Part shown: piece by piece, positions 1,881 through 62,768 of the stretch
Position numbering within the stretch: position 1 is the stretch's first letter
Layout of the letters: every line of letters begins with the position of its first letter
The notes under the pieces: generated by a model
What the model saw: the letters and a program-made list of their open reading frames with translations, nothing else
Database searches by the model: none
What the model was told of the DNA's origin: nothing
Translations under genes and position numbers: made by a program
Assembly (NCBI GenBank): GCA_041612255.1
Contig: JBFJJN010000009.1
Span: 33,640-97,639 of the forward strand
Length of the DNA: 64,000 nucleotides
Origin: Methylophilaceae bacterium
Lineage (GTDB): Bacteria; Pseudomonadota; Gammaproteobacteria; Burkholderiales; Methylophilaceae
Reading direction: 5' to 3'

Positions 1881-2113
1881 GTATATATCCGTAATTGCAA
1901 AGTAAAAAGGCAACTATTAATTAGAACCAAGATTTAGATCTGTGATTTAAAACTGTGAGTTAGATTAAGCATTGATTGAGGCTTTATTAATTAAACCCAT
2001 TTAATCATGCAGCTGGTGATGTGATTATTGAGGGTTTTAAATATTTATTTAAAATATATTAATAATTAAAACAACAGCTTATCAATTAATTTAACTTTTT
2101 TTAAAAAAAGTCC

Positions 2114-2140
2114 TAAAGTTTTCTAAAGAGGTGACGTTAT
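2114..2140 (+). promoter_or_regulatory. Sigma-28 (FliA)-like promoter box, copy B
   Basis: Identical TAAAGTTT-N11-GACGTTAT element in the second repeat copy, about 300 nt upstream of the flhD ATG. Confidence 0.3.
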
Positions 2141-2266: not shown

Positions 2267-2326
2267 GCCCTATGTAGGTGTTTGTAAGACAAACACCTAC
2301 ATAGGGCTGTCTGCGCGTCTTACAAA
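2267..2326 (+). promoter_or_regulatory. flhDC leader structure: perfect 18-bp hairpin plus a mutually exclusive 10-nt alternative pairing
   Basis: gccctatgtaggtgtttg (2267-2284) pairs with caaacacctacatagggc (2290-2307) across a 5-nt loop. tttgtaagac (2281-2290) is the exact reverse complement of gtcttacaaa (2317-2326). No U-run follows, so it is not a classical terminator. Confidence 0.45.
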
Positions 2327-3376: not shown

Positions 3377-4162
3377 ATGCTGCAGTCTCATCAGTTTGAA
3401 GTAAAAAAAGTTAAGTTAGCGCCAGCAACATTGGCGATAGTGATACAAGTGGTTGCATTAATTGCTGTATTGCTCAGTGTAATAATCGTTAGTCATGTTT
3501 CAACGGTCAGATTCTCTCTCTGGACATTGGTGTTGTTGCAGTCACTCATTGCAACAGCACTCTGTCAATTTGCCGGTATGGCAATCTGGTGGCGCTGGAT
3601 TCACGCTATTTTCCCCTTCGCAATCTATGGCATGTCATTTTGGACAGTGCCAAATGAAGTTTATTTAATTGGCTTTTTAATTAGTCTCAGTGTGTTTTGG
3701 ACGACTTTTCGAAGCCAAGTTCCTTTTTTTCCTTCTCGTCCAATTGTTTGGCAAAAAGTTGCCGAGCTGATTCCACCAAACCAATCCATTCGTATGATTG
3801 ATGTTGGCAGTGGCTTAGGCGATTTATCTATGCATATAGCTAAAGCCAATACCCATAGCAAAATAGAAGGCATTGAAATTGCGCCTTTACCTTGGTTAGT
3901 CAGTGTGGTTCGTGCCTGGTGGCGACGGTCCTCTGCCCATTTTCATTTGGGTAATTATCATGAGTTAGACTTTGCACAATATGATCTTGTTTTTGCTTAT
4001 TTATCCCCAGCAGCAATGTCCGCCTTATGGCAAAAAGCACAGCAAGAAATGCAAAGTGGTAGCTTATTAGTTAGCTATGAGTTTGAAATTGAAGATGTTC
4101 CACCAACTTTTACCATTGACAATGGATCGCGCGCACCGACCATTTATGTTTGGAAAATGTAA
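3377..4162 (+). CDS. Membrane-anchored class I SAM-dependent methyltransferase (hypothetical)
   Basis: 261 aa. The N-terminal ~115 aa is hydrophobic with 3-4 predicted TM helices. The C-terminal part has the methyltransferase motif I MIDVGSGLGDL followed by IEGIEI and LVFAYL strands. Sits 30 nt after flhC and before motA. Confidence 0.6.
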   Translation: MLQSHQFEVKKVKLAPATLAIVIQVVALIAVLLSVIIVSHVSTVRFSLWTLVLLQSLIATALCQFAGMAIWWRWIHAIFPFAIYGMSFWTVPNEVYLIGFLISLSVFWTTFRSQVPFFPSRPIVWQKVAELIPPNQSIRMIDVGSGLGDLSMHIAKANTHSKIEGIEIAPLPWLVSVVRAWWRRSSAHFHLGNYHELDFAQYDLVFAYLSPAAMSALWQKAQQEMQSGSLLVSYEFEIEDVPPTFTIDNGSRAPTIYVWKM

Positions 4163-6300: not shown

Positions 6301-8784
6301 CTAAGAACATACAGAACGTACTTGCGCAATATCGGTCTTGCCTTGTAATACTTTCGCAATACCATCCTGTTTCAATGTCACCATGCCATTTGATAATGCT
6401 TCCCGCACTAACTCAGGTACTGGCGCACGCTTCTGAATTAAATGTCTCAAGTTAGGTGAAATTGTCATCAACTCATATAAACCAATGCGGCCACTGTAAC
6501 CAGTATCGTTGCAAGATTTACAGCCTTTAGCTCGGTAGATAACAATCTTTTTGTTTTGAGCATATTGTGCGTGCCAATCCGCTAGCACAGTCTGCGCATC
6601 AATATCTGTATTCAACACGTATTCATCAGCTAATGATTGAAGTTCATCTTGTTTTGCCTCATCCGCTTCTTTACAATGCGGACATAGTGATCGTGCCAAA
6701 CGCTGTGCCAAAATACCCAATAATGCATCAGCAAAGTTAAACGGATCCATACCCATATCGAGCATCCTGACAATACTTTCTGGCGCACTATTGGTATGCA
6801 ACGTTGATAATACAAGGTGGCCTGTTAATGAAGCTTCAATCCCCGTTTTGGTCGTCTCTTCATCACGCATCTCACCAACCATAATCACATCTGGATCGGC
6901 ACGTAAAAAGCTGCGCATCGCACTGGCAAATGTCCAGCCAATTTTTGGATTGACTTGCACTTGTCTTAAGCCCGCTTGGGTAATTTCAATCGGATCTTCT
7001 GCCGTCCAAATTTTACGCTCGGGCGTATTGATATGACCGAGCAAGGAATGTAATGTTGTGGTTTTACCTGAGCCTGTAGGACCGCAAGTCAAGATTAAAC
7101 CGTATGGCTTGTTCACCATGCTTTCTAAAGAAGCAAGCGCCTTATCGCCTAATCCAAGATTCTGCAACGGTATTGGTTTGCTAGAAGAAAGCACGCGCAT
7201 CACAATATCTTCCATCCCGTTGGAGGTTGGAATCGTGGCTACGCGTAACTCTACTTTGTGAGGACCAAATTGTTTAAAGTCTAATTTGCCATCTTGTGGT
7301 TTTCGACGTTCAGAAATATCAAGCTGACACATAATCTTAATGCGAGAAATCAGCGCACTACAAAAGTTGGCTGGAATTTTAAGATAAGGCATCAGCACGC
7401 CATCTTTACGGAAACGCACCACGGTATTCTTTTTGCCAGGATACGTTTCAATATGGATATCCGATACTTTGCCTTTCACCGCATCCATTATCATTTTATT
7501 CACCAGTTGTACCAATGTGCTATCTGACTCCGCAATTGGCTCATCTTCGGTATCGGCAGCACTGGTTTTATCTTCTTCAAACAACCTGTTTGCTAAATCA
7601 TCGCCAGAGCTTTGCATCAGATTAAAATCAAGCGAGTCATCTTCATTGCCATTTGACGAACTGAGATCATCTCTATCCCAACTCATTGAAGGTGAGTAAA
7701 ACTCATCCATCGCGCGATGAATATCTTCACTGGATGCCATTGCTGGCAATACATTCATTTGCGTCACAAAGCGCACTTCATCAATGGCTTTGATATTCAA
7801 AGGGTCTTCAAAGGCAACCACTAACATCCCATCATGAATACAAAGTGGTATCAAGGTATATTTTCTAACGAGTGTCGCATCAATCAGTCTGATCGCGTTG
7901 GGATCGAAGTTGAATTGAGCTAAGCTTACGTAAGGGAAGCCCAGTTTTTTCGCTAACGTGCCTTTTAAAGTGCGCTCGTCGACAATACCCATTTCAACAA
8001 GGATTTCTCCTAAGCGAACACCACGATTCTCTTTTTGTTTGTTGAGGGCTGTTTCTAGCTGCTGGTCTGTCAGTAAGTCTAATTGTTTTAGTGCTTCGCC
8101 TAACTTTAATACAGGCAGGCTTTTTTGTAACGTAATTGCTTGATGTAATTGTTCTGTTGAAATGATTTTATTCTCATTCAAATAATCACCAATGCGTTGT
8201 GCCTTTAATGCTTTTTGGTGAATAACTGCGGCGTCAATATCATCTGTAGAGACAAGGTTATCCTCAACCAACAAGTCGCCAATTTGTGAACCAATTTGAT
8301 GCTGTTGGATAGATTGGCTAGGAATGAAATGTTTTTCTACTTTGTTATCATTTAACAAATGAAAAAGGTACAAACCAGATGCGTTATTCACATAGCTAAT
8401 GGTTTCACCATTGACGGTTGTTCCATCGGTAAAATTGATTTGATAACTTTGCTTCTCAGAGGCTGGAAATACTTCTACTGCACGCGTTTCTAAAAAGCTT
8501 GGTGAAGGTACTAATGCCGTTTTCCAAAGTAATTGCAAACTTCTAATTTGGTTGAATTCAATCATTTGCTGCGCATCGCTACCCAAGCGTTGGAATAGAA
8601 CTTTGGATTGTTCAGGCGAAAATCGAATAAGTAGGCCCACTAATGGCGATTTTTGACCTAACATTTCAATAATACAACTTTCAGGGAATGGCTTCTTATC
8701 ATCCTTGACGAAATTGTAATAAGGCGGCTTAGGCCACTCGAAAGTGCTGATTTCACTCATTTTATTTAAATCCAGATTGCCCAT
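6301..8784 (-). CDS. GspE/PilB/MshE-family secretion ATPase with an extended N-terminus (orphan)
   Basis: 827 aa. Walker A GPTGSGKTTT, Asp/His boxes and a tetracysteine zinc motif (CPHC...CKSCNDTGYSGR). A T2SSE_N-like domain spans aa 281-362. Four MshEN-like 24-aa motifs lie at aa 167, 197, 227 and 257. Residues 1-166 are unassigned. No platform, pilin or secretin genes nearby. Confidence 0.85.
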   Translation of the reverse strand: MGNLDLNKMSEISTFEWPKPPYYNFVKDDKKPFPESCIIEMLGQKSPLVGLLIRFSPEQSKVLFQRLGSDAQQMIEFNQIRSLQLLWKTALVPSPSFLETRAVEVFPASEKQSYQINFTDGTTVNGETISYVNNASGLYLFHLLNDNKVEKHFIPSQSIQQHQIGSQIGDLLVEDNLVSTDDIDAAVIHQKALKAQRIGDYLNENKIISTEQLHQAITLQKSLPVLKLGEALKQLDLLTDQQLETALNKQKENRGVRLGEILVEMGIVDERTLKGTLAKKLGFPYVSLAQFNFDPNAIRLIDATLVRKYTLIPLCIHDGMLVVAFEDPLNIKAIDEVRFVTQMNVLPAMASSEDIHRAMDEFYSPSMSWDRDDLSSSNGNEDDSLDFNLMQSSGDDLANRLFEEDKTSAADTEDEPIAESDSTLVQLVNKMIMDAVKGKVSDIHIETYPGKKNTVVRFRKDGVLMPYLKIPANFCSALISRIKIMCQLDISERRKPQDGKLDFKQFGPHKVELRVATIPTSNGMEDIVMRVLSSSKPIPLQNLGLGDKALASLESMVNKPYGLILTCGPTGSGKTTTLHSLLGHINTPERKIWTAEDPIEITQAGLRQVQVNPKIGWTFASAMRSFLRADPDVIMVGEMRDEETTKTGIEASLTGHLVLSTLHTNSAPESIVRMLDMGMDPFNFADALLGILAQRLARSLCPHCKEADEAKQDELQSLADEYVLNTDIDAQTVLADWHAQYAQNKKIVIYRAKGCKSCNDTGYSGRIGLYELMTISPNLRHLIQKRAPVPELVREALSNGMVTLKQDGIAKVLQGKTDIAQVRSVCS

Positions 8785-8871
8785 TGTTGTCCTAAATATT
8801 CATCTTATGTCGTTTATAATCAGTTGGTTATTAGGTATAAACGTCATGTTTTAACGATTGGTATATACTAG

Positions 8872-8898
8872 ATAACGGCACAATTAAATGAAAGTTTA
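8872..8898 (-). promoter_or_regulatory. Sigma-28 (FliA)-like promoter upstream of the orphan ATPase
   Basis: The minus strand reads TAAACTTT-catttaattgt-GCCGTTAT: 7/8 and 6/8 matches to TAAAGTTT-N11-GCCGATAA with exact N11 spacing. The -10 element ends 87 nt upstream of the ATG at 8784. It shares the CGTTAT -10 core with the boxes at 1873-1880 and 2133-2140. Confidence 0.45.
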
Positions 8899-20193: not shown

Positions 20194-21771
20194 TTAATTT
20201 TTTCTGATAGCCAATACCGCTTGATTGCGTAATGTCTTGAGTAAACTGAGGCTTTTAGATTTTTCATCAAAGCCATTAGTGGTTTGCATGTCGGCATAAA
20301 AGCAGCCAACCGCTTTTTTATTAATCATGACTGGCAGTAGTAAAAAGCTTTTTGCAGTGGATATTTTTTTGTACCAATCAGGAATTTTAGATGAAATTGG
20401 ATTGGCTTGTGTGTCAACAATCACAATATCAATGCCTTTGTCGACGGAAAGATGAAAAACATCTGGCGCATAATCCAGAGGAAATTTAAAAGCGGGCAAT
20501 ACGGCTTGTATATCACTACCATAGCCAGAGCGTGCCTGCATCATATTAGTTTTGCCGTCACGAATAAACAATAGTGCCCGATGGCAATGCAAACCGCGGT
20601 ACATGGTTTCTAAGATGATTTGCATAACCTCATTCACATTATATTCACCCACAAGAGAGTCAATGACATCTTGGATACCTGCTTGCAAAATACTTTCACC
20701 GTCTATTTTTTCATCCGCTGTGGTCGATTCATTTGCTTTTTCAGGTGGCGGACTTTTAGTTAACGTGCTATCGGTTGTCTCTTCAGCTTCACTGTTTGCA
20801 TCAATCGGCTTTTCCTGTTTTTTAGTCGGAAGCGTTTCATTGGTATAGTCAGCCACACGTTTCAACCAAACTGTCTTTTTAGAAACTAAATTAAGTATAT
20901 TGGCGTGCGTAGCGATTTCGGTTAACCCTTGATCTAACGCCTTTTGTAACATTGAGGCATCAATACGAATGGATTTTTTATATTTATTAACCAAATCCTG
21001 AGTTGTTTTATATTTTTCTGCCACACTGGTATTTGCAGCAACAGTCGTTAATTCAACTGCTAAATTCGTCGTTATTCTCAGTTGGTCGATATCGTTTTTC
21101 ACCTCTATTACTTTATCGTTAGTAAAAGCTTGCATGCCGTGAATTAAACGATCAGGCAATTGCCAACTTTTAGCAACTGCAACACCGAATGCATCGTAAG
21201 AAACGCCAAGCACTTTTTGAGACGCTTTAGTTTCAGACATGCCGCTATTTATTAATGCATTGACTTGCTGACACTCATCATAAAAGTAAAAGAGTGACAA
21301 CAGGCGACCTAGGTGATGAAAAATGCCACAAATCATAGCCTCTTCATAATTACGTGCTTGTAAGTTAATCGTTAATTGACGGGCGATAAGGCCAATAAAA
21401 TAAGTCGAAAGTACTTGGTCGCCTATTTGTTCAGCTTGCGATTTGTTTTGGATGAAATTAAGTAGCACCAGAGTGGTTGCGATATTCCTGACAACATCAA
21501 AACCGAGAATGACAACGGCTTTGGAAATGGTACTAATCCTGCCTCCAAACTGACCATAAGAAACGGTGTTGACCACTTTTAACAAATTATTAGTCAGCGA
21601 AAAATCTTCTAATATCGTATTGGTTAAGTGTTGAATAGACGAGGTGTCAGAGCTCACCACGTTGTTAATTTGAATAATAGTGGTCGATAGCGCAGGAAAA
21701 TCAGCACTATTTTGCAAGTATTGCAAACGGGATTCTAAATCCGTCAAATTGTGTATCTCTTCATCAGGCAT
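20194..21771 (-). CDS. HDOD domain - GAF domain signalling protein
   Basis: 525 aa. N-terminal HDOD signature (FPALSTTIIQIN...ILEDFSLTNNLLKVVNTVSYG...ISKAVVILGFDVVRNI...GIFHHLG), an acidic Ser/Thr-rich linker, and a C-terminal GAF-like fold. Confidence 0.7.
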   Translation of the reverse strand: MPDEEIHNLTDLESRLQYLQNSADFPALSTTIIQINNVVSSDTSSIQHLTNTILEDFSLTNNLLKVVNTVSYGQFGGRISTISKAVVILGFDVVRNIATTLVLLNFIQNKSQAEQIGDQVLSTYFIGLIARQLTINLQARNYEEAMICGIFHHLGRLLSLFYFYDECQQVNALINSGMSETKASQKVLGVSYDAFGVAVAKSWQLPDRLIHGMQAFTNDKVIEVKNDIDQLRITTNLAVELTTVAANTSVAEKYKTTQDLVNKYKKSIRIDASMLQKALDQGLTEIATHANILNLVSKKTVWLKRVADYTNETLPTKKQEKPIDANSEAEETTDSTLTKSPPPEKANESTTADEKIDGESILQAGIQDVIDSLVGEYNVNEVMQIILETMYRGLHCHRALLFIRDGKTNMMQARSGYGSDIQAVLPAFKFPLDYAPDVFHLSVDKGIDIVIVDTQANPISSKIPDWYKKISTAKSFLLLPVMINKKAVGCFYADMQTTNGFDEKSKSLSLLKTLRNQAVLAIRKN

Positions 21772-22879: not shown

Positions 22880-23512
22880 TTAATCTAATAGCGCATGTTT
22901 AATAGCATAGTAAGTTAAGTCAGCGTTGGTTTTTAAACACATTTTTTCCATTATTCTGGACCGATAAGTACTAACAGTTTTAATACTTATATTCAGTTGT
23001 TCAGCAATTTCTGTTGGACTAAGACCGCTAGCAAGTTTAAAAAACACTTGAAACTCACGTTCAGAAAGCATTTCATGTAGCTGTTTGTCGGACGGGTGAC
23101 TTAGTTCGTTTGTCATTAGCTCTGCTAATTCAGCAGAGATGTATTTTTTGCCAGAGGCAATTTTTTTGATGGCTTTGATGATTTCATCAGACTCTGCATT
23201 TTTGGATAAATAGCCATGACAGCCGCTACGCATTAAGTTAAGTGCATATTGCTCTTCAGCATAACCACTTAATACCAAAACGGGTAGATCGGGCGCAATG
23301 TGCTTTAAATCATGCAAAGTATCAATGCCATTTTTATCTGGCATTGATATATCTAAGACAACCACATCGTAGGTGTTATTACGGATAAGTGATAAGGCCT
23401 CAGTTCCCGAGGCCGCCTCGCCAGCAACTTCAATGTCGCTTTCAAGATTAATTAAATTCTTTAGACCGTCACGTACAATTTTATGGTCATCTACTAGCAA
23501 TATTTTTTTCAT
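22880..23512 (-). CDS. NarL/LuxR-family response regulator
   Basis: 210 aa. REC (ILLVDDH...VVVLDISMPDKNG...LVLSG) plus a LuxR-type HTH (LSEREFQVFKLASGLSPTEIAEQLNISIKTVSTYRSRIMEK). Confidence 0.9.
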   Translation of the reverse strand: MKKILLVDDHKIVRDGLKNLINLESDIEVAGEAASGTEALSLIRNNTYDVVVLDISMPDKNGIDTLHDLKHIAPDLPVLVLSGYAEEQYALNLMRSGCHGYLSKNAESDEIIKAIKKIASGKKYISAELAELMTNELSHPSDKQLHEMLSEREFQVFFKLASGLSPTEIAEQLNISIKTVSTYRSRIMEKMCLKTNADLTYYAIKHALLD

Positions 23513-24717: not shown

Positions 24718-24946
24718 TCGGTTTCCCCTTACTTGTTTATGAATATTTTTATTCGATGAAGCAATTGTAGCTAGTGAAGGGTTAAAGATAAGTAAGGCAT
24801 TCCTTATTTAAATGTAAGATAATACTTACACCGCTTGATTCAGGTATCAGCGGCAACTCTTAATATAGCTTTTGTTATTAAAGAGGATAATCACTTTTGG
24901 TAACAACAATACAACAACTTATTTGAGTGAAGGATCTAGTTTCAAC

Positions 24947-26368
24947 ATGCGAGATTTTTTTGATAAGCTCGACGCTGCGTTTGAGCGTATTTCATTGCGG
25001 TTTGGAAGTAAAAACATCTTATTGCTAGCCATGGCTTTGTTGGTTGCCATGTTAACTATCATTGTGAGTGACTACTGGATTAATAAAATTCAGAAGCAAA
25101 ATGCGCAAATATTGATCCTTAGAACCAATATTATTGAAGTGAATCAATTGAAAGAAAATGTGTTTAGGGCAGAAAGTGCGCAACGTGCCTACTTGATTAC
25201 AATGGATGAGAGTTTCGCATTGCCGTTTGACTATGCAATTGATAGTGCGAGAAAAAATATCGATGCGGTACAAACGAGCATTAGTCATGTGCTCAGTGGC
25301 GATGTGCAAATGAAAGCACTCGATGTCGTTCGAGATATGTCATCCTCATTAGAAGCTAAAACGGCAGAAATGACATTAACACTCAATTTGGCTAAAAATG
25401 GAAAGTTAAAAGAAGCGCAATCAATTGTTAAATTGGGTGATGGGCTGGATGAAGCGGAAAAGCTGGTAGCACTCAGCGAAGGATTTATTAACACCGAAGC
25501 ACAATTGGTCACTATTCTTGAAAAAAGTCGAAAACAGACCATCTTATACACGCGAATTGCCATTGTCTTTGGCTCAATTATTCTTATCTCTCTGGTTGTC
25601 TTGGTCATTAGTCAGCAATTAAAGGAGTTGTCTATTCGTGGTGAACTGCATGACAAGTTGACGGCTGAAAATGAGCGATATGAAAATGAAATTAAAAAGC
25701 AAAGAAAACTTTTATATTCGATGGCGCTTGACCACCAAACGGATGCTGAGCGAGAAAGGCAAAAGCTAGCCAGAGAGTTACATGATGAACTTGGGTCTAT
25801 TTTGACAGCGGCAAAAATGGATATTGCATGGACCATGAAAAAAGTCAGTGAACAATTTCCTGATGTGGCAGATAAACTCAAAAAGACGAATAAATATTTA
25901 GACCAAGGTATCGAGTTTAAAAGACAAATGGTGCAAGATCTTCATCCGTCTATGATTGCATCATTCGGATTTTGGCCTGCCATTCAAAACTTTATTCAAG
26001 AGGCTGCTGCCAGAAATCAATGGAAGCTCAACCTTGAATTACCTAGTGGCGAGCCACAGCTGAATGAAACTATTAGTTTGATTGCCTATCGCGTTATACA
26101 AGAAAGTTTAAATAATGCGAGCAAGTATGCAAAGGCGACCAATGTGTCTGTATATCTAATGCAGGATGAAAAATATTTAAAAATTGAAATTGTTGATGAT
26201 GGAGTGGGCGCGGATTTAGAGTCGGTTGGTGAAACTACGCATGGACTTTCTGGTATGCGCCATCGCGTATTGGCAATTGGCGGACATTTTGATATTGCCA
26301 GCAAATCTGGTCATGGTATGTCTACGCAGGCGCTGCTGCCATTAGATATTAGTAAGTATGATTATTAG
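24947..26368 (+). CDS. CHASE3-domain sensor histidine kinase (HisKA_3/NarX-type)
   Basis: TM helix, CHASE3-like periplasmic region (RAESAQRAYLITMDESF), second TM helix, coiled coil, H-box ARELHDELGS and HATPase_c (N, G1, G2 boxes). The track ORF opens at TTG 24872. ATG 24947 after AAGGA is preferred. Divergent from the regulator operon. Confidence 0.85.
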   Translation: MRDFFDKLDAAFERISLRFGSKNILLLAMALLVAMLTIIVSDYWINKIQKQNAQILILRTNIIEVNQLKENVFRAESAQRAYLITMDESFALPFDYAIDSARKNIDAVQTSISHVLSGDVQMKALDVVRDMSSSLEAKTAEMTLTLNLAKNGKLKEAQSIVKLGDGLDEAEKLVALSEGFINTEAQLVTILEKSRKQTILYTRIAIVFGSIILISLVVLVISQQLKELSIRGELHDKLTAENERYENEIKKQRKLLYSMALDHQTDAERERQKLARELHDELGSILTAAKMDIAWTMKKVSEQFPDVADKLKKTNKYLDQGIEFKRQMVQDLHPSMIASFGFWPAIQNFIQEAAARNQWKLNLELPSGEPQLNETISLIAYRVIQESLNNASKYAKATNVSVYLMQDEKYLKIEIVDDGVGADLESVGETTHGLSGMRHRVLAIGGHFDIASKSGHGMSTQALLPLDISKYDY

Positions 26369-32397: not shown

Positions 32398-35300
32398 ATG
32401 CTAACTAATTACAAAGAGCTCAAAGACAAGCTAAAAAGTAATTTATTTTTAGCTTCATTGGCGATTGCGATATGTTATTTTATTGCTGCACGTTTAAGTT
32501 TGATGCTGGCTTATGAAGGTAGCAATGCATCGCCAATCTGGCCACCATCAGGTATTGCAATTGCCTCCATTTATATTATTGGATTTCGTGTTGCACCCGC
32601 AATTGCAATTGCGGCCTTTATAGCAAATATCTTATCGTTGATGACCGGAGAAGGTGTCAACTTAAACAGTACGCTTGTTTCACTTGCCATTGCTTTAGGC
32701 AACACAGCTGAGGCCATTCTAGCTACAGTTTTGCTCAGGCGAACATTGTTAAACGCCAGTCCATTTGCCAACCCTCAAAATGTCTTCAAATTTTTAATCG
32801 TGGTGACTCTGGCTTGCGCAGTAGCCGCAAGCATAGGAACATTTAGCTTATACGCAGGAAGTCTTATTTCAGCATCAATAGCTCCGGCGGTATGGCTCAA
32901 TTGGTGGCTGGGTGATGTCGGCGGTGTGATGGTTGTTACGCCATTGATTTTGGCTTGGTTGCCAGCATTGAAGCAGCAATTAACAAAGCGAACGGTATTG
33001 GAAGTGCTCATGACTTCTTTACTGGTCTGCATCATCACTGTTGCTATTTTTAGCGGATACTTTGCAAATAATCATATTGATAGAGTATTGGTCTACTTAT
33101 CTATTTTAGCTATTGCTTGGATTGCATATCGTTTTGGACTAGCCGAAGTTACGCTAGCGATATTGGTATTCACTGCTGGTGCAATATGGGCAACGATTCA
33201 TCATTTGGGTCCTTTTAGCACAGTCGAACTTAATGACTCACTGATTTTGCTTGTTAGCTTTATCATCATGCTAGCGTTGACTGGTCTTTTATTATCTGCG
33301 GATATTGTTCACCGTTATCAAACACTCACCACACAGAGAAAATTACCCCGGTTGGAATGGACAACATTATTAAGCCTACTTGGAATGACCATTATCAGCT
33401 GGCATTTGGCTTCACTTGAGACCGCAAAGTTGAGTGAAAGTCAGTTTGCACTATCAATCAATCAAGTTCAGCTGAGAATCCAACAGCGCATGAAAATCTA
33501 TGAGGAAGTGCTGAAAGGCGGGGTTGCCTTATATGCTGCATCAGATAACATCACCCATGATGACTGGTATGCCTATTGTGAAACATTAGACTTACAGGAA
33601 AGCCTGCCAGGCATTCTAGGTTTTGGTTATGCTCAAATGCTTAAGTCATCAGAGAAAGACGCTTTTGTAAATGAGATGCGTGCTGTGAAGCCAGACTACG
33701 AGGTTAAGCCAAGTGGGCATAGAGAGTATTACGGCGCAATTAAATATCTTGAGCCAGAGGATGAGCGCAATATTGAAGCAATTGGATATGATATGTATTC
33801 AGAAGCGTCACGCCAATTAGCCATGAAGACGGCTGCGTTAAGTGGTGAAATGTCGTTGTCTAAAAAAATCACTTTGGTGCAAGAAATTGATGAAGATGTG
33901 CAAGCGGGCATTTTGATGTATTTGCCGCAATACAAAAAAGGGGTAAAGCTAAATACAACTGCTCAGCGATGGAAAGCGTTAGAAGGATTTGTTTATGCTC
34001 CTTTTCGTATGCAAAACTTATTGAACGGTATATTAAGCTCGACTTTAGTTGATATCCGATTGCAACTATTCGATGGAGATTCAACGCGGCCCGATGATTT
34101 AATGTACGACAGTCATGCCGATTTGCCTATGCAAACCGATGTGCTGGGTAGCCTTGCTAGAAAGACCTTATTTGATATTGGCGGTCATGCTTGGACGTTA
34201 AGTTTTCAGACTTTGCCATCATTTAATGAAAGAGTGGATCAACAGAAAGCACAGATTATATTGCTCTCCGGACTGCTGCTCAGTTTGTTGCTATATATGT
34301 TGGTGCGTTCGCTCAGTGTGAATCGTGAGGCAGCGCTTAATCTTGCTAAAGAGATGGCCTCAGCATTACGCGGCTCAGAAGAAAAGTTTAAATCTTTGAC
34401 GGATTCTTCCAATACTGGGATTGTAGTCACCAATAGTGATGAAGAAATTATTTATTGTAATCATGCAATCACCCTCATTTTTGGGTATTCGGATGATGAG
34501 ACACTAGGTCAAGACTTTGCATTCTTAATGGGGGGGGCAACGAAAGGCCAGCACAAAAAGGGAGAGAAGGTCAGTTTTAACCTTAGTCAATATGTTGGTA
34601 AACAATTTGATGATACAGGGATGAACAAAGCCAACCAGGCCATTCCTATCAACTGTTCTGTGAGTCAATGGGAAGATCAAGGCGAATGGTTTTATGGTAT
34701 CGCCATACAAGATATTACTGAACGAAAATTGGCAGAGACGAATTTAAAATCACTTGCCAGTCGGCTTAAATTGGCAACAGAAGCAGCTGAAGCTGGCGTT
34801 TGGGAGCTCGACGCGACCACCAAAACCATGAAGTGGGATAAAAAGATGTTCAAAATGCATGATTTAAAACTAGAACCAGATCCCAATATAAATGTCTATG
34901 ATGATTGGTTAAGTACGATTGATGCTAGCTATCGTAAAGGCGTGTTATCACAAATTAAAGCATCTTTAGACCATGCAACTTCATTCAAAAGTGAGTGGAA
35001 GAGCATAAATGGGCGAGTTTTTAGATCATTTGGATTAATCAGCCATAGTGAAAAAGACAATGCTCCTTTGCTTGTGGGGATTGACTTCGATATCACGGAG
35101 CAGCGCAACCAAGAGTTGAAAATCAAAAACGCATTAGAGGAGAAAGAAACACTACTTAAAGAGGTGTATCACCGCGTTAAAAACAACCTGCAAGTGATTA
35201 CTAGCTTATTTAATTTGCAAAGCAGATCCTTGCCTGATGGAGAGTCCAAAAATGTAATAGCCGATGCATCGTCTCGGGTTTTTTCGATGTCTCTAGTTCA

Positions 35301-35760
35301 TGAAAAACTGTATCGCTCAAAAGAACTTTCATCCATTCAACTGAATGAGTACATTCAAGATTTGTGTATAAACTTTTCACAAGCGTCTGGTCTGTCGAGC
35401 AAAAATATTAAATTTCAGTTGTCTGTACAGCCTTTATCTGTCGATTTAGATACCGCTATACCTTTAGGTTTGATTTTGAATGAGTTGATATCAAATTGTC
35501 TGAAACATGCTTTTAAAAATCAAACAGAAGGTGTTATTAGCATTACTTTAAATAACACCAACGACCACAAAGTGGAATTAACCGTTTCAGATAACGGTCA
35601 AAATGATTTGGTTAATACACCGCCTAACGGTAAGACGCTTGGACTTCAGTTAATCAATAGTTTGTGTAATCAATTAGATGGTGAGATACATCAAGAGATT
35701 AATAATGGAACAACAGTGCGCATAACCTTTAAAGAAAAAACGTTACAAAGTAGTTATTAA
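32398..35760 (+). CDS. MASE1 - CHASE - PAS - PAS - HisKA_2 sensor histidine kinase
   Basis: 1120 aa. About 8 TM helices with MASE1-like motifs (ASPIWPPSGIA, WWLGDVGGV). CHASE-like periplasmic domain (PGILGFGYA...EYYGAIKYLEPEDERNIEAIGYDMYSE). Two PAS domains. The kinase core EVYHRVKNNLQVITSLFNLQ is the HisKA_2/HWE type, followed by HATPase_c. Confidence 0.85.
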   Translation: MLTNYKELKDKLKSNLFLASLAIAICYFIAARLSLMLAYEGSNASPIWPPSGIAIASIYIIGFRVAPAIAIAAFIANILSLMTGEGVNLNSTLVSLAIALGNTAEAILATVLLRRTLLNASPFANPQNVFKFLIVVTLACAVAASIGTFSLYAGSLISASIAPAVWLNWWLGDVGGVMVVTPLILAWLPALKQQLTKRTVLEVLMTSLLVCIITVAIFSGYFANNHIDRVLVYLSILAIAWIAYRFGLAEVTLAILVFTAGAIWATIHHLGPFSTVELNDSLILLVSFIIMLALTGLLLSADIVHRYQTLTTQRKLPRLEWTTLLSLLGMTIISWHLASLETAKLSESQFALSINQVQLRIQQRMKIYEEVLKGGVALYAASDNITHDDWYAYCETLDLQESLPGILGFGYAQMLKSSEKDAFVNEMRAVKPDYEVKPSGHREYYGAIKYLEPEDERNIEAIGYDMYSEASRQLAMKTAALSGEMSLSKKITLVQEIDEDVQAGILMYLPQYKKGVKLNTTAQRWKALEGFVYAPFRMQNLLNGILSSTLVDIRLQLFDGDSTRPDDLMYDSHADLPMQTDVLGSLARKTLFDIGGHAWTLSFQTLPSFNERVDQQKAQIILLSGLLLSLLLYMLVRSLSVNREAALNLAKEMASALRGSEEKFKSLTDSSNTGIVVTNSDEEIIYCNHAITLIFGYSDDETLGQDFAFLMGGATKGQHKKGEKVSFNLSQYVGKQFDDTGMNKANQAIPINCSVSQWEDQGEWFYGIAIQDITERKLAETNLKSLASRLKLATEAAEAGVWELDATTKTMKWDKKMFKMHDLKLEPDPNINVYDDWLSTIDASYRKGVLSQIKASLDHATSFKSEWKSINGRVFRSFGLISHSEKDNAPLLVGIDFDITEQRNQELKIKNALEEKETLLKEVYHRVKNNLQVITSLFNLQSRSLPDGESKNVIADASSRVFSMSLVHEKLYRSKELSSIQLNEYIQDLCINFSQASGLSSKNIKFQLSVQPLSVDLDTAIPLGLILNELISNCLKHAFKNQTEGVISITLNNTNDHKVELTVSDNGQNDLVNTPPNGKTLGLQLINSLCNQLDGEIHQEINNGTTVRITFKEKTLQSSY

Positions 35761-35782
35761 ACCGGATATTAAGGACTAAGTA

Positions 35783-38245
35783 ATGAAATTAATTAACCAA
35801 GAAAATAAAATTTATAGTGTACTCATTGTTGAAGATGAAGCCATCATCGCCATGGATTTGTCGTCGCAATTGGAAGGTATGGGTTATCAAATCTGTGCGG
35901 TTGCTGATAACGGTGAAGATGCCATTAAAATGGCTAAGCAGCATCATCCAGATTTAATCCTAATGGATGTTGTTATTAAAGGAGCAATTGACGGTATACA
36001 AACTGCTGAAAAAATTATTAAAGAATTAAAAATACCGATTATCTATCTCACGTCGTTTAGCGATGAGGATACAGTCAGACGTGCTTCAAAAACAATGCCT
36101 TATGGGTATATTTCCAAGCCTTTTTACAGCAAGGATCTGAATAGTGCAATCAAGATTGCCATTTATAAAGCCACTTTAGAGAAAAACTTAAGAAGTTCTG
36201 AACTTTGGTTTTCTGCAACTTTGAGCTGTGTATCTGATGCGGTCATCGCCACTAATACAGATTATAAAGTACATTTTATTAATCCTGCCGCTGAACTTTT
36301 GATAGAAGCAACATTAGAGGAGGTTGAGGGGCTGCATATCAATGATGTCTTTATGATTGAAGATGACATTAATGGAAGCAAATTCGAACTTAGTTCTGCA
36401 TTGCAAGACAATAAAGTTACCGATATATCATTTGGTAGCACTTTACATACGCTTAAGGGAAATAGAAGGCCGGTAGATTTTGCAGCTGCTCCAATCCGAG
36501 AGGATGGGAAGCCTTTAGGTTCTGTCATCGCTATGCGAGATGTTTCCAAACGCATTGCTTCTGAGGTGGCATTAAAAAACAGTCAAGAGCGCTTTAGAAT
36601 GGCGTTTGAAAATGCGCCTGTTGGAATGGCGTTAATCAGTCTTGAAGGATTTTATCTGCAAACCAATCATGCTATGAGCGACATTTTAGGGTTGGTAACT
36701 GGAGATTTGAATGGTGCTTTTGATAAGGATTATACCTATGCCGATGATGTAGAAATGGAGCGTGAAAATTTAAGAAAACTCATTTCTAATGAAACGGTAA
36801 GTGTTCAATTCGAGAAACGCTACGTTAATAGTGGCGGGGAGATAGTGTGGACGCTGGTGAGTGTTTCATTATTGCAGCAGGAAGGTGATCCTTTCTGTTA
36901 CCTCTATCAAGTGCATAACTACACTGATCATAAAGCTGCTGAAACGCATTTGAATTTCTTGGCGCATCACGACACGTTGACTGGGTTACTTAATCGCACT
37001 AAGTTCATGATAGAAGTTAAAAAATATCTCGCTTACGCTCAAGACAATAATGAAAATTTTGCAATCATGTTTATCGATTTGGATCATTTTAAAGATATTA
37101 ATGACTCACTAGGACATGATGTTGGCGATAAATTGCTAGTTGATGTTGCTGGTAAATTAAAAGAGTCTATTCGTGATGTTGATTTAATTGCTAGACTTGG
37201 TGGTGATGAGTTCACGATCATGCTAAGGGATGTCAATGTCGAGGACATGGTTCATGTGGTTGCTGACAAAATCCAAAGCAATTTATTTATACCACTGAAT
37301 ATTGAAAATAACAGTATTAGTTGTCAGTGCAGTATAGGGGTCAGTTTATTTCCAAAAGATGGTAATGATGTTAAGTCACTTCTAAAAAATGCGGATAACG
37401 CTTTATACCTCGCTAAACGGAAAGGTAGAAATAATGTACGATTCTATCATCCTGGACTCGGCTATGAGTTAACTAAAAAGCTTAGGCTCGATAAAGATCT
37501 CAGAACAGCAATAGCAGAAACCCAGTTTGAGTTATATTACCAACCAATTGTTTCTAATCGGACTGATGGGCAGTTTGCTTGCGAGGCATTAGTCCGTTGG
37601 AACCATCCTTCCCGCGGATTAATCATGCCCGCAGAGTTTATTTCTGCGGCAGAGGAATCTGGCTTGATTGTTGAAATTGGAGCTTGGGTTTTAGAAACTG
37701 CTTGTTTTCAAGCTGCAAATTGGCAGAAAAGTATGGGGGACATGCAAGTTTCCGTAAACGTTTCGCCAAAACAATTTTTTTCTGGCGATATCTATAGAAC
37801 GATAAAGAACGCATTAGAACGCAGTAAGTTAAACCCTCATTTGCTTACAGTAGAAGTGACAGAGGAGCTCTTTTTAAAAAACACTACAGTCAATTTAGAT
37901 CTCATTAATAAAATAAAAGAAATGGGGGTCAAAATTTCGATAGACGATTTTGGTATCGGCTACTCATCGTTAAGATACATTAAACTGTTTGGTCCGCATA
38001 AAATTAAGATTGATCGTTCGTTCATTCGAGACATTGATACGAATCCAGAAAGTAATGCTATCGTCAATGCGATTATTGCGATGGGTAAGGCGTTAAATAT
38101 TGAGTTGGTTGCTGAAGGAGTCGAAAGTTTAGAAATTAATACGATGTTGCAATCACTCTCTTGCGATTCCGTACAAGGCTACTTTTATAGCAAGCCACTT
38201 CCATTAAGAGATTTTGAAGATTGGTTTAATCAGTTTAAAAATTAA
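35783..38245 (+). CDS. Response regulator REC - PAS - PAS - GGDEF - EAL (c-di-GMP turnover)
   Basis: 820 aa. REC (VLIVEDE...LILMDV), two PAS domains, an intact GGDEF (RLGGDEFTIML with upstream DLDHFKDINDSLGH) and an intact EAL (CEALVRWNHP...DDFGIGYSSL...KIDRSF). Confidence 0.9.
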   Translation: MKLINQENKIYSVLIVEDEAIIAMDLSSQLEGMGYQICAVADNGEDAIKMAKQHHPDLILMDVVIKGAIDGIQTAEKIIKELKIPIIYLTSFSDEDTVRRASKTMPYGYISKPFYSKDLNSAIKIAIYKATLEKNLRSSELWFSATLSCVSDAVIATNTDYKVHFINPAAELLIEATLEEVEGLHINDVFMIEDDINGSKFELSSALQDNKVTDISFGSTLHTLKGNRRPVDFAAAPIREDGKPLGSVIAMRDVSKRIASEVALKNSQERFRMAFENAPVGMALISLEGFYLQTNHAMSDILGLVTGDLNGAFDKDYTYADDVEMERENLRKLISNETVSVQFEKRYVNSGGEIVWTLVSVSLLQQEGDPFCYLYQVHNYTDHKAAETHLNFLAHHDTLTGLLNRTKFMIEVKKYLAYAQDNNENFAIMFIDLDHFKDINDSLGHDVGDKLLVDVAGKLKESIRDVDLIARLGGDEFTIMLRDVNVEDMVHVVADKIQSNLFIPLNIENNSISCQCSIGVSLFPKDGNDVKSLLKNADNALYLAKRKGRNNVRFYHPGLGYELTKKLRLDKDLRTAIAETQFELYYQPIVSNRTDGQFACEALVRWNHPSRGLIMPAEFISAAEESGLIVEIGAWVLETACFQAANWQKSMGDMQVSVNVSPKQFFSGDIYRTIKNALERSKLNPHLLTVEVTEELFLKNTTVNLDLINKIKEMGVKISIDDFGIGYSSLRYIKLFGPHKIKIDRSFIRDIDTNPESNAIVNAIIAMGKALNIELVAEGVESLEINTMLQSLSCDSVQGYFYSKPLPLRDFEDWFNQFKN

Positions 38246-61427: not shown

Positions 61428-62768
61428 TTAGCTAGCAAACTGAATGGCTTGCAAGCGCTCGACAATCTCTGGGAAAAGAGGGCGCATTGAACTATTGCTA
61501 GCAACACAGTTTTTTTGTAATTGCCATAAGGCATGGTAGGTTTTGTTTTTTAAAGGGCTGCGCATCAGTAATTCTGTTAGCAACGTGCCAAATGCACTAG
61601 ATTCAATTTGTTGTAATTGAGTCGCTAACGATTCGTCTAGTGGTAAAAGCGAGGCGCCACCTAAGTCGCTCAAGATGGCATTATGCTGATGCCATAAAAT
61701 ATTATGCGCATATAAATCGCCATGCATTAAGCCTTGTCGGTGTAAGTGCAGCATCGCATGCGCAATGCCATGAATAATAACGAACACCTCTGCAATGGTA
61801 AATGTTCGCAATGGCACATAGACATCGCGGCTGCAAGTCGCAAAATCAGGCGGACCGGCTAACACGGTTAAATTAGCCTCTAACAATGACATCACTAAGC
61901 CTAAGGTATTATCAGGATGATTGATGATTGTGCCTATCATACCGGTGAGATTCTTATGATTACCGGCGATTACATTGGCGTGCAGTTCACAGGTGGGCAA
62001 ACCATCGCTGGTTAATGCACCTTTAAATAATTTAACGGCTACTATTTCAGATGCCGCATTTGCATGAATTGGTTTTTCTTCATACAGCATCGCCTCAAAA
62101 ATAGTGCCAGATGCGCCTTCACCTAACACCTTTTTTAACTTAATGCGTTGCCAATCAATAGTTTGAATAGCATTGCTTGCCATCCGAGAATCTTCAACTA
62201 CGTTGCTAACTGGATTGCCCGCGTAGGCCAGCCATTTCAATTTTGGTAAATTAAATAGCCATGATGGTAATGATGCAAATTGATTAGCAGATATTCGCAA
62301 CAATTCTAACGCATGGCAATTAGATAATGATTCTGGCAAAGCGGACAATTGATTACCAGCCAGCATTAACTTTTGCAGATTTTTACATAAACCCAACGCC
62401 GAAGGCAGTTTAGTTAACGCGTTGTCGGTCATAATGAACCAGCGAAGATGCTGGGTTGGAATTGCCTGTTCGGCTATGTGATTAATCTGATTGGCTTTAA
62501 ACCCAATCATGCTCAAGCTAGTACATTTTCCTAAAACTTCAGGCAGGTATGTAAATTGATTGAATGAACAAAAAAGAATACGTAACTTTTTAAATCGATC
62601 AAAATCGTCAGGTAGTGCGGATAATTGATTGCCCGATAAATCGAGAATTTCTAAGGTATCGGTTAGGTTATAGATTTCTTCAGGGAAACTACTTAAGCCG
62701 CATGACAGCTTAAGTTGCTTACACCCAATCAGTTTGCCCGCTTTTAATTGCGTGTAGGTTGAATCCAC
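61428..62768 (-). CDS. Leucine-rich-repeat protein fused to a eukaryotic-type protein kinase domain
   Basis: 446 aa. About 7 LRRs of the LxxLxLxxNxLxxLP type (LEILDLSGNQLSALPDDF, LQKLMLAGNQLSALPESL, LELLRISANQFASLPSWL). The kinase has a Gly-loop GEGASGTIF, VAVK lysine, catalytic loop HGDLYAHNIL and DLG in place of DFG. Confidence 0.8.
   Translation of the reverse strand: MDSTYTQLKAGKLIGCKQLKLSCGLSSFPEEIYNLTDTLEILDLSGNQLSALPDDFDRFKKLRILFCSFNQFTYLPEVLGKCTSLSMIGFKANQINHIAEQAIPTQHLRWFIMTDNALTKLPSALGLCKNLQKLMLAGNQLSALPESLSNCHALELLRISANQFASLPSWLFNLPKLKWLAYAGNPVSNVVEDSRMASNAIQTIDWQRIKLKKVLGEGASGTIFEAMLYEEKPIHANAASEIVAVKLFKGALTSDGLPTCELHANVIAGNHKNLTGMIGTIINHPDNTLGLVMSLLEANLTVLAGPPDFATCSRDVYVPLRTFTIAEVFVIIHGIAHAMLHLHRQGLMHGDLYAHNILWHQHNAILSDLGGASLLPLDESLATQLQQIESSAFGTLLTELLMRSPLKNKTYHALWQLQKNCVASNSSMRPLFPEIVERLQAIQFAS

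Follow-up and report, generated by a model that had tools for sequence, protein, structure and literature searches.

The 64-kb stretch of Methylophilaceae DNA analysed here (the window; contig JBFJJN010000009.1, positions 33,640 to 97,639) encodes, next to the flagellar stator genes motAB, an 827-amino-acid (aa) protein that is a member of the T2SSE superfamily, carries MshEN units and has an extension-type core closest to PilB. It is best described as representing an uncharacterised subfamily of the PilB/MshE/GspE hexameric ATPases, with the architecture DUF6982-2xMshEN_N-MshEN_C-ATPase. The family is previously undescribed, widespread and nearly always encoded alone, and in this Methylophilaceae clade its gene is preceded by a conserved promoter of the sigma-28 (FliA) type. 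The reading that I favour, at somewhat less than even odds (roughly 0.45), is that the protein is an accessory pilus-type motor, predicted to sense cyclic di-GMP (c-di-GMP) and drawn into the late flagellar regulon, which would serve a type IV pilus machine from another locus as a second motor or a regulator.

That ATPases of the MshEN type act as c-di-GMP receptors is established; the known ones are resident motors of operons for pili or secretion. What is distinct here is a widespread family encoded alone, with an uncharacterised N-terminal module, a duplicated sensor unit and, in one lineage, a FliA-type promoter.

A complete motor core closest to PilB

The gene, its parts and its promoter map as follows in the window (basis in brackets).

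6301-8784, minus strand: coding sequence of the 827-aa DUF6982-MshEN-PilB-like ATPase (open reading frame (ORF) list, ATG start)
8287-8784, minus strand: N-terminal domain DUF6982, residues 1-166 (AlphaFold2 (AF2) model and Pfam matches of orthologues)
7945-8286, minus strand: four MshEN-type 24-residue motifs, residues 167-190, 197-220, 227-250 and 257-280 (motif scoring)
7684-7944, minus strand: MshEN C-subdomain/T2SSE_N (N1), residues 281-367 (Pfam PF05157, E 2.9e-19)
7531-7683, minus strand: acidic low-confidence linker, residues 368-418 (predicted local distance difference test score, pLDDT, <50 at residues 375-393)
6319-7530, minus strand: hexameric-ATPase core (N2 and C-terminal domain, CTD), residues 419-822 (Pfam T2SSE, E 1.6e-122)
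7060-7083, minus strand: Walker A, GPTGSGKT, residues 568-575 (motif positions)
6985-6999, minus strand: Asp box, residues 596-600 (motif positions)
6862-6897, minus strand: Walker B, residues 630-641 (motif positions)
6790-6825, minus strand: His box, residues 654-665 (motif positions)
6673-6684 and 6511-6522, minus strand: tetracysteine zinc motif, CPHC at residues 701-704 and CKSC at 755-758 (motif positions)
8872-8898, minus strand: sigma-28-type promoter TAAACTTT-N11-GCCGTTAT, whose -10 element ends 87 nucleotides (nt) before the ATG

An earlier note, drawn up from the sequence alone, had credited the protein with a complete GspE/PilB/MshE core including Walker A, a tetracysteine site and a T2SSE_N domain, and both the Pfam matches and the motif positions agree with it: the T2SSE profile (PF00437) gives 409 bits against a cut-off of 24.9, and all four boxes are present. 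Across 53 family members the four cysteine columns of the zinc site are nearly invariant, and the complete motor core, zinc site included, is under purifying selection throughout the family. The core obtains its best hidden Markov model (HMM) score with PilB (TIGR02538, 548.3 bits over residues 227-825), ahead of MshE and GspE, and the best PDB sequence matches of the core are the PilB structures 3jc8, 5zfr and 5tsg (E about 1e-112). The protein does not reach the equivalog cut-off of PilB (675.65 bits), nor that of GspE (TIGR02533, 479.5 bits against 630.25) or of TfpB (NF053534, 421.9 bits against 850). In known systems the PilB-type assembly of N1, N2, CTD and zinc module engages pilus or type II secretion system (T2SS) platforms. 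A public collection includes a protein 100% identical to the 827-aa ATPase (P0001).

Vibrio cholerae MshE, the extension ATPase of the mannose-sensitive haemagglutinin (MSHA) pilus, belongs to the same ATPase superfamily, and residues 227-367 of the window protein align to residues 9-115 of its MshEN domain (E 6e-11), in which the same pair of 24-residue motifs forms the c-di-GMP site (PDB 5HTL). Unlike V. cholerae MshE, the window protein has about 225 extra N-terminal residues and lies outside any msh operon in the window. These additional residues, which comprise DUF6982 and the second motif pair, were found only in this family. The architecture is, from the N-terminus, DUF6982, two four-helix units of MshEN_N type, MshEN_C and the ATPase core.

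An array of four MshEN motifs

The four repeats begin at residues 167, 197, 227 and 257. They were scored against the relaxed form, with 11 constrained positions, of the published MshEN motif RLGxx[LVI][LVI]xxG[LVI][LVI]xxxxLxxxLxxQ (Wang et al. 2016, PMC5013675), and repeats 1 to 4 fit at 9, 9, 9 and 11 of the 11 positions, the deviations falling at position 1 (Q167), position 7 (N203, K233) and position 10 (N176, K206, D236). The four copies, their exact 30-residue period and their location at nt 7945-8286 are thus as first described, but the fit is looser than had been implied, since only repeat 4 matches in full. Because a passage on the first motif residue in PMC11731258 indicates that a residue other than Arg at this place can raise affinity, K227 in repeat 3 is tolerable, and Q167 in repeat 1 need not be disqualifying. 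NCBIfam model NF053729 (c-di-GMP_motif) describes a 53-residue unit of two 24-residue motifs with a cut-off of 38 bits; repeats 1+2 score 45.6 bits and repeats 3+4 54.2 bits, and the pairing register is ambiguous because the shifted pair 2+3 also scores 46.9 bits.

An AF2 model of 400 residues (pLDDT 85.2; predicted template-modelling score, pTM, 0.73) folds residues 168-281 into eight helices that form four hairpins, and the top Foldseek match of the modelled N-terminal half in the PDB is 5htl, the c-di-GMP-bound MshE/MshEN structure (E 5.5e-8, template-modelling (TM) score by target 0.69). Four motifs at 30-residue spacing are found in 111 of 142 full-length family members, distant members often matching the MshEN motif better than the window protein does; the four-motif array is, like DUF6982, a conserved hallmark of the family. 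On this evidence the MshEN units would bind one or two c-di-GMP molecules and so gate engagement of the ATPase.

The suggestion that the MshEN motif normally occurs as one pair overlooks PilF of Thermus thermophilus, in which multi-motif arrays are known. Of the three GSPII/MshEN domains of PilF, two bind c-di-GMP, and three motifs are present in GSPII-C (PMC11731258). Among PDB sequences, PilF also gives the best match to the region of the repeats (6F8L, 8PDK; E 2.4e-45), and repeats 2-4 of the window protein align to the three motifs of its GSPII-C. The two arrays differ in what is repeated: PilF repeats whole GSPII domains, with N and C subdomains, whereas the window protein duplicates only the 53-residue N-subdomain unit. 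PilF furthermore lacks DUF6982, and it is the main motor for pili and DNA uptake rather than an orphan.

The N-terminal module

The first 166 residues carry an invariant WPxPPY motif (residues 17-22) followed by five-stranded beta-barrels at about residues 35-93 and 112-164. These two small barrels are seen in an AF2 model built from a 17-sequence alignment (pLDDT 85.9, pTM 0.79). Pfam family DUF6982 (PF22478) is matched by 14 of the 17 orthologous N-domains at E <= 1 (best E 1.1e-8), and relative P0059 scores 30 bits against its cut-off of 24.5. The N-domain of the window protein itself gives no PF22478 match at E <= 1, and its membership is assigned by homology, because the orthologous domains match. 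That this domain resembles nothing recognised was borne out: DUF6982 is an uncharacterised family, a Foldseek search of the model against the PDB gave no match at E < 1e-3, and a literature search found no paper that mentions it. The remark that the domain has two similar halves holds for the structure, with its two five-stranded barrels, but in sequence the similarity is marginal; internal duplication is not significant (hhalign E 0.023, probability 2%).

The weak Foldseek list for DUF6982 contains tandem Tudor and SH3-like proteins and the two-barrel PilZ proteins MotI, PP4397 and YcgR, at E 0.02-0.1 and TM about 0.15-0.2 (5y6f, 5vx6 and 2gjg at TM <= 0.21), and a search of the N-domain profile against PDB sequences returned an LSm/EDC3 hint alone (E 0.05). 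A PilZ, YcgR-like identity was considered and rejected, the fold matches being at noise level and the PilZ motifs absent: residues 1-166 contain neither RxxxR nor D/NxSxxG and have no PilZ match in Pfam.

DUF6982 also occurs outside the ATPase family. It is fused to ankyrin repeats in P0168 and P0223, and in P0207 DUF6982-MshEN is joined to a receiver (REC) domain that replaces the ATPase. These fusions indicate that the N-terminal part is a portable module; DUF6982 itself may serve in partner binding, in targeting or as an adaptor.

A widespread family encoded alone

An exhaustive profile search with the N-domain, covering 1.84 billion cluster representatives, yielded 421 clusters (50% identity) at E <= 1e-3, where a word-index search with the N-domain alone gave no match. 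DUF6982 is N-terminal in nearly every profile match, and almost all matches align collinearly with the window protein; contig ends account for the short ones, which are fragments. Full-length members from this search have 770-940 aa and are 27-47% identical to the window protein; hundreds of close relatives, of 805-832 aa, are 57-90% identical over their full length. Related loci were also gathered with a 300-residue alignment query, a search that reaches Methylophilaceae only.

In the window the gene order is flhB, flhDC, a conserved 261-aa ORF and motAB, followed by the ATPase gene, which converges on motB; on its other flank lie sugar-nucleotide and aminotransferase genes. Since they are convergent, motAB and the ATPase gene are not co-transcribed, and no intrinsic terminator was found between motB and the ATPase gene. 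The earlier note had called the ATPase an orphan within the 64 kb. This stands: no window ORF of at least 150 aa has a pilus or T2SS Pfam domain, no frame contains a pilin N-methyl motif, tblastn with MshG and pilin queries gave no match, and no msh gene (mshIJKLMNEGF/BACD) is present.

At least 12 species-level genomes, at 64-90% identity, show the same convergence on motB and have the 261-aa ORF and flhDC farther on; in two genomes of this motAB clade a GGDEF-EAL gene is inserted between motB and the ATPase gene. The adjacency is confined to one clade and is lost in members of 63% identity or less. Elsewhere the contexts vary. In Methylovorus MP688 the gene lies beside mxa and two-component genes; in one clade a glycosylation island adjoins it and fliC-flaG-fliD lies 7 kb away; and distant members (30-32% identity) directly follow a prkA-yeaH(DUF444)-spoVR stress operon, as seen on two independent contigs (L007, 154-4362; L057, 3165-10448). 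The ATPase gene has GGDEF/EAL genes at its flanks in about 16 of 44 species loci, including many from Methylotenera and Methylophilus, an enrichment that speaks for a c-di-GMP sensor but, coming from related genomes, is only suggestive.

In two further loci, L049 (12602-19626) and L052 (12676-19752), the ATPase gene lies directly upstream, at about 170 nt, of a canonical mshE (574 aa) followed by mshG, mshF and five pilin-like genes. The window protein is 33% identical to the MshE of L049. MshG orthologues of at least 70% identity are common in Methylophilaceae, and a typical msh operon of Methylotenera includes an mshE gene of its own, and no DUF6982 gene adjoins it. Because the msh operons keep their own MshE, the DUF6982 ATPase is an additional protein and not a displaced orthologue; the scenario by which the earlier note proposed that its own hypothesis might fail, an msh operon whose missing ATPase is encoded at this locus, was not seen in Methylophilaceae.

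Two neighbours deserve a separate mention. The 261-aa ORF (3377-4162, plus strand), between flhC and motA, is kept in every syntenic locus at 60-83% identity; it has weak Pfam matches to S-adenosylmethionine-dependent methyltransferases (E about 4e-4, below cut-offs) and is an uncharacterised member of the flhDC-motAB cluster. In three clades a HisKA_3 kinase gene and a NarL/GerE response-regulator gene lie divergently beside the ATPase gene (L001, 5545-9685; L049, 7644-9825; L059, 7702-9841), and the window has a similar pair 14-18 kb from the ATPase gene (22880-23512 and 24872-26368).

A conserved sigma-28-type promoter

The promoter site at 8872-8898 departs from the consensus TAAAGTTT-N11-GCCGATAA at 3 of 16 positions. 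A scan of the window for this consensus with up to three mismatches gives 3 matches where 1.0 is expected, and the site taken alone is not significant; its significance comes from its conservation in relatives. The pattern T[AC]AAnTTT-N11-GCCG[AT]TA[ATC], with a match required at 6 or more of the 8 positions of its first element, was searched on both strands of 774 kb of fetched loci, where it occurs 19 times, 14 of them on the same strand as the ATPase gene and about 100-140 nt upstream of its start. In the window the 8872-8898 site is its only match. With two sites recognised by eye, the promoter is present in 16 of the 16 related species loci that include upstream sequence; L013 has the variant GCCGTAAT, and L025 retains the -10 element at a contig end that cuts off the -35 element. 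An alignment on the -10 element shows both elements and their 11-nt spacer conserved amid diverged flanks, and the distance from the end of the -10 element to the start codon is 71-110 nt. Two of the five other occurrences are perfect TAAATTTT-N11-GCCGATAA sites that precede flagellin genes (fliC; L045 and L038) by about 120 nt, which validates the sigma-28 consensus for Methylophilaceae. The sigma-28 promoter proposed in the earlier note is thus strongly supported both by its conservation and by its kinship with flagellin promoters.

L017 and L023 retain the promoter and have no motAB next to the ATPase gene. L049 and L052 have a weaker sigma-28-like site upstream of the ATPase gene, with the -10 element GACGTTA(A/C). 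The pattern scan found no sigma-28 motif upstream of motA, and an Rfam search (E <= 1) of the 5' region detected no c-di-GMP riboswitch or other known RNA. Recruitment into the late flagellar regulon, as the earlier note had proposed, accordingly has the conservation of the promoter behind it, but the link to the stator that was part of the same proposal amounts to adjacency in one clade, with a motA that lacks the motif. Judged from these sites, transcription of the ATPase gene probably depends on FliA, and motile cells would thus be stocked with the protein.

The only other three-mismatch matches to the FliA consensus in the window lie in the flhB-flhD intergenic region, where a segment of about 260 bp is present as a tandem duplicate (1790-1880 and 2050-2140, plus strand). 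Each copy ends in TTAACTTTTTTTAAA..GTCCTAAAGTTTTCTAAAGAG(AC/GT)GACGTTAT, a sigma-28-like TAAAGTTT-N11-GACGTTAT arrangement without Rfam match. These sites may be FliA-dependent promoters directed toward flhDC, or promoters of small transcripts.

What does the ATPase act on?

The favoured reading can be put as a sequence of steps. FliA-dependent transcription would pre-load motile cells with the ATPase. The machine on which it acts would most likely be the MSHA-type system common in Methylophilaceae, which keeps its own MshE, with DUF6982 as the adaptor to the partner. Binding of c-di-GMP by the MshEN units would gate engagement of the ATPase, and a rise of c-di-GMP in a flagellated cell would thereby lead to pilus deployment, a switch from swimming to sticking. 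The earlier note had placed the protein in a role other than that of a pilus motor. Two findings speak against that view, the core, which scores best against PilB, and the two genomes that place the gene upstream of an mshE-mshG-pilin operon; the same two facts support the pilus-motor reading, and action on a pilus machine encoded elsewhere is more likely than action on the stator.

Two known systems offer partial likenesses. In Acinetobacter baylyi, TfpB is a second extension motor beside PilB, so that one pilus is served by two motors (PMC8213720, PMC11656802). As an extra, phylogenetically distinct PilB homologue on a pilus that has its own motor, TfpB is a functional analogue of what is proposed here; the window protein is not its orthologue, because it scores 422 bits against an equivalog cut-off of 850. 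The other likeness is regulatory and comes from Escherichia coli, in which YcgR and PdeH are c-di-GMP effectors of the FliA class 3 regulon. The window ATPase is predicted to resemble them as a c-di-GMP-responsive protein made from a sigma-28 promoter alongside the late flagellar genes. The effectors themselves differ: YcgR, a PilZ protein, binds to the motor itself, and the window protein is an ATPase with neither the motifs nor the domain of PilZ. For TfpB, neither DUF6982 nor control by FliA is known.

Several observations weigh against the favoured reading. Of about 44 genomes, only 2, which are closely related, have the gene adjacent to an msh operon, and most members stand alone in unrelated contexts such as the mxa/two-component and prkA-yeaH-spoVR neighbourhoods, so that a filament-independent role fits these contexts equally well. 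The promoter motif is absent in members of 62% identity or less (Methylotenera, Methylovorus and relatives), and the FliA link is therefore not a trait of the family. Finally, repeats 1-3 each depart from the relaxed MshEN motif at two positions, and the first residue of repeat 4 varies across the family. A literature search found no paper that links Methylophilaceae, pili, flagella and c-di-GMP.

The first alternative, possible though unlikely, is that the protein is a signalling ATPase that works independently of any filament, a c-di-GMP receptor that stands alone and reports its nucleotide state to partners by way of DUF6982, for instance in exopolysaccharide (EPS) production or stress. The gene stands alone in nearly every context looked at, the DUF6982-MshEN-REC and DUF6982-ankyrin fusions mark a portable module, and GGDEF/EAL and HisKA_3/NarL two-component genes recur as neighbours. 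There is also a precedent in Myxococcus xanthus PilB, a PilB-type ATPase with MshEN that has been proposed to act in EPS regulation by passing its nucleotide and c-di-GMP state to another pathway (PMC5544727). Unlike the window ATPase, however, M. xanthus PilB is a bona fide pilus motor encoded in a pil cluster. Against this alternative, a full motor core and zinc site under purifying selection are what is expected of a working motor, and the msh operon adjoins the gene in L049 and L052.

A second alternative, which I consider improbable, is that the protein is an effector of the flagellar motor, a c-di-GMP-gated ATPase, made together with late flagellar gene products, that docks through DUF6982 on MotAB or the switch complex, for example as an ATP-driven brake, a clutch or a remodeller of stators. 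It draws on the convergent adjacency to motB in at least 12 species-level genomes, on the conserved FliA-type promoter, on the clade in which the gene lies 7 kb from fliC-flaG-fliD, on the precedent of YcgR and PdeH and on the presence of YcgR, MotI and PP4397 among the fold matches of DUF6982. Those fold matches, however, are at noise level and stand beside tandem Tudor proteins, PilZ motifs and a PilZ Pfam match are absent, the adjacency to motAB is lost at 63% identity or less, motA has no promoter motif, the PilB-type N1, N2, CTD and zinc module is kept in full, and two genomes have the gene beside an msh operon. A bolder form of the idea is a long shot: that DUF6982-2xMshEN-ATPase is a filament-independent, c-di-GMP-triggered motor, wired to FliA in this clade, that acts directly on the flagellar motor or stator by ATP-driven stator removal or as a clutch, with DUF6982 for docking.

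That the protein is an ordinary housekeeping PilB, MshE or GspE orthologue, displaced from its operon and preceded by a chance promoter-like match, is very improbable, since for all its clearly PilB-like core it scores below the equivalog cut-offs (PilB 548 against 676, GspE 480 against 630, TfpB 422 against 850), has about 225 family-specific N-terminal residues, coexists with a canonical MshE in L049 as Methylotenera msh operons carry their own MshE, and has its promoter in 16 of 16 related loci.

Other features of the window

The leader of flhDC contains a perfect 18-bp inverted repeat, GCCCTATGTAGGTGTTTG-TAAGA-CAAACACCTACATAGGGC (2267-2307, plus strand), upstream of flhD (ATG at 2437) and preceded by the palindrome TACCTATATATAGGTA at about 2246-2261; the inverted repeat could be a terminator or the binding site of a regulator. 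Genes of c-di-GMP-related signalling are found at 20194-21771 (minus strand) and 32398-38245 (plus strand) and encode an HDOD protein, a MASE1-CHASE-PAS histidine kinase and a REC-PAS-GGDEF-EAL protein. At 61428-62768 (minus strand) a 446-aa protein combines leucine-rich repeats with a Ser/Thr/Tyr protein-kinase domain, a combination that is unusual for a betaproteobacterium.

Implications

If the favoured model is true, the accessory ATPase would connect flagellar gene expression to c-di-GMP and to the deployment of pili at the molecular level, in a concrete and testable way, as a swim-to-stick switch in methylotrophs that are abundant in the environment. It would also join TfpB as a second case in which two extension-type ATPases work on the same pili. 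If the family instead works independently of filaments, or has the flagellar motor as its target, the ATPase fold would have been put to a new use, and direct action on the flagellar motor, if true, would define a new class of flagellar regulators built from a pilus ATPase.

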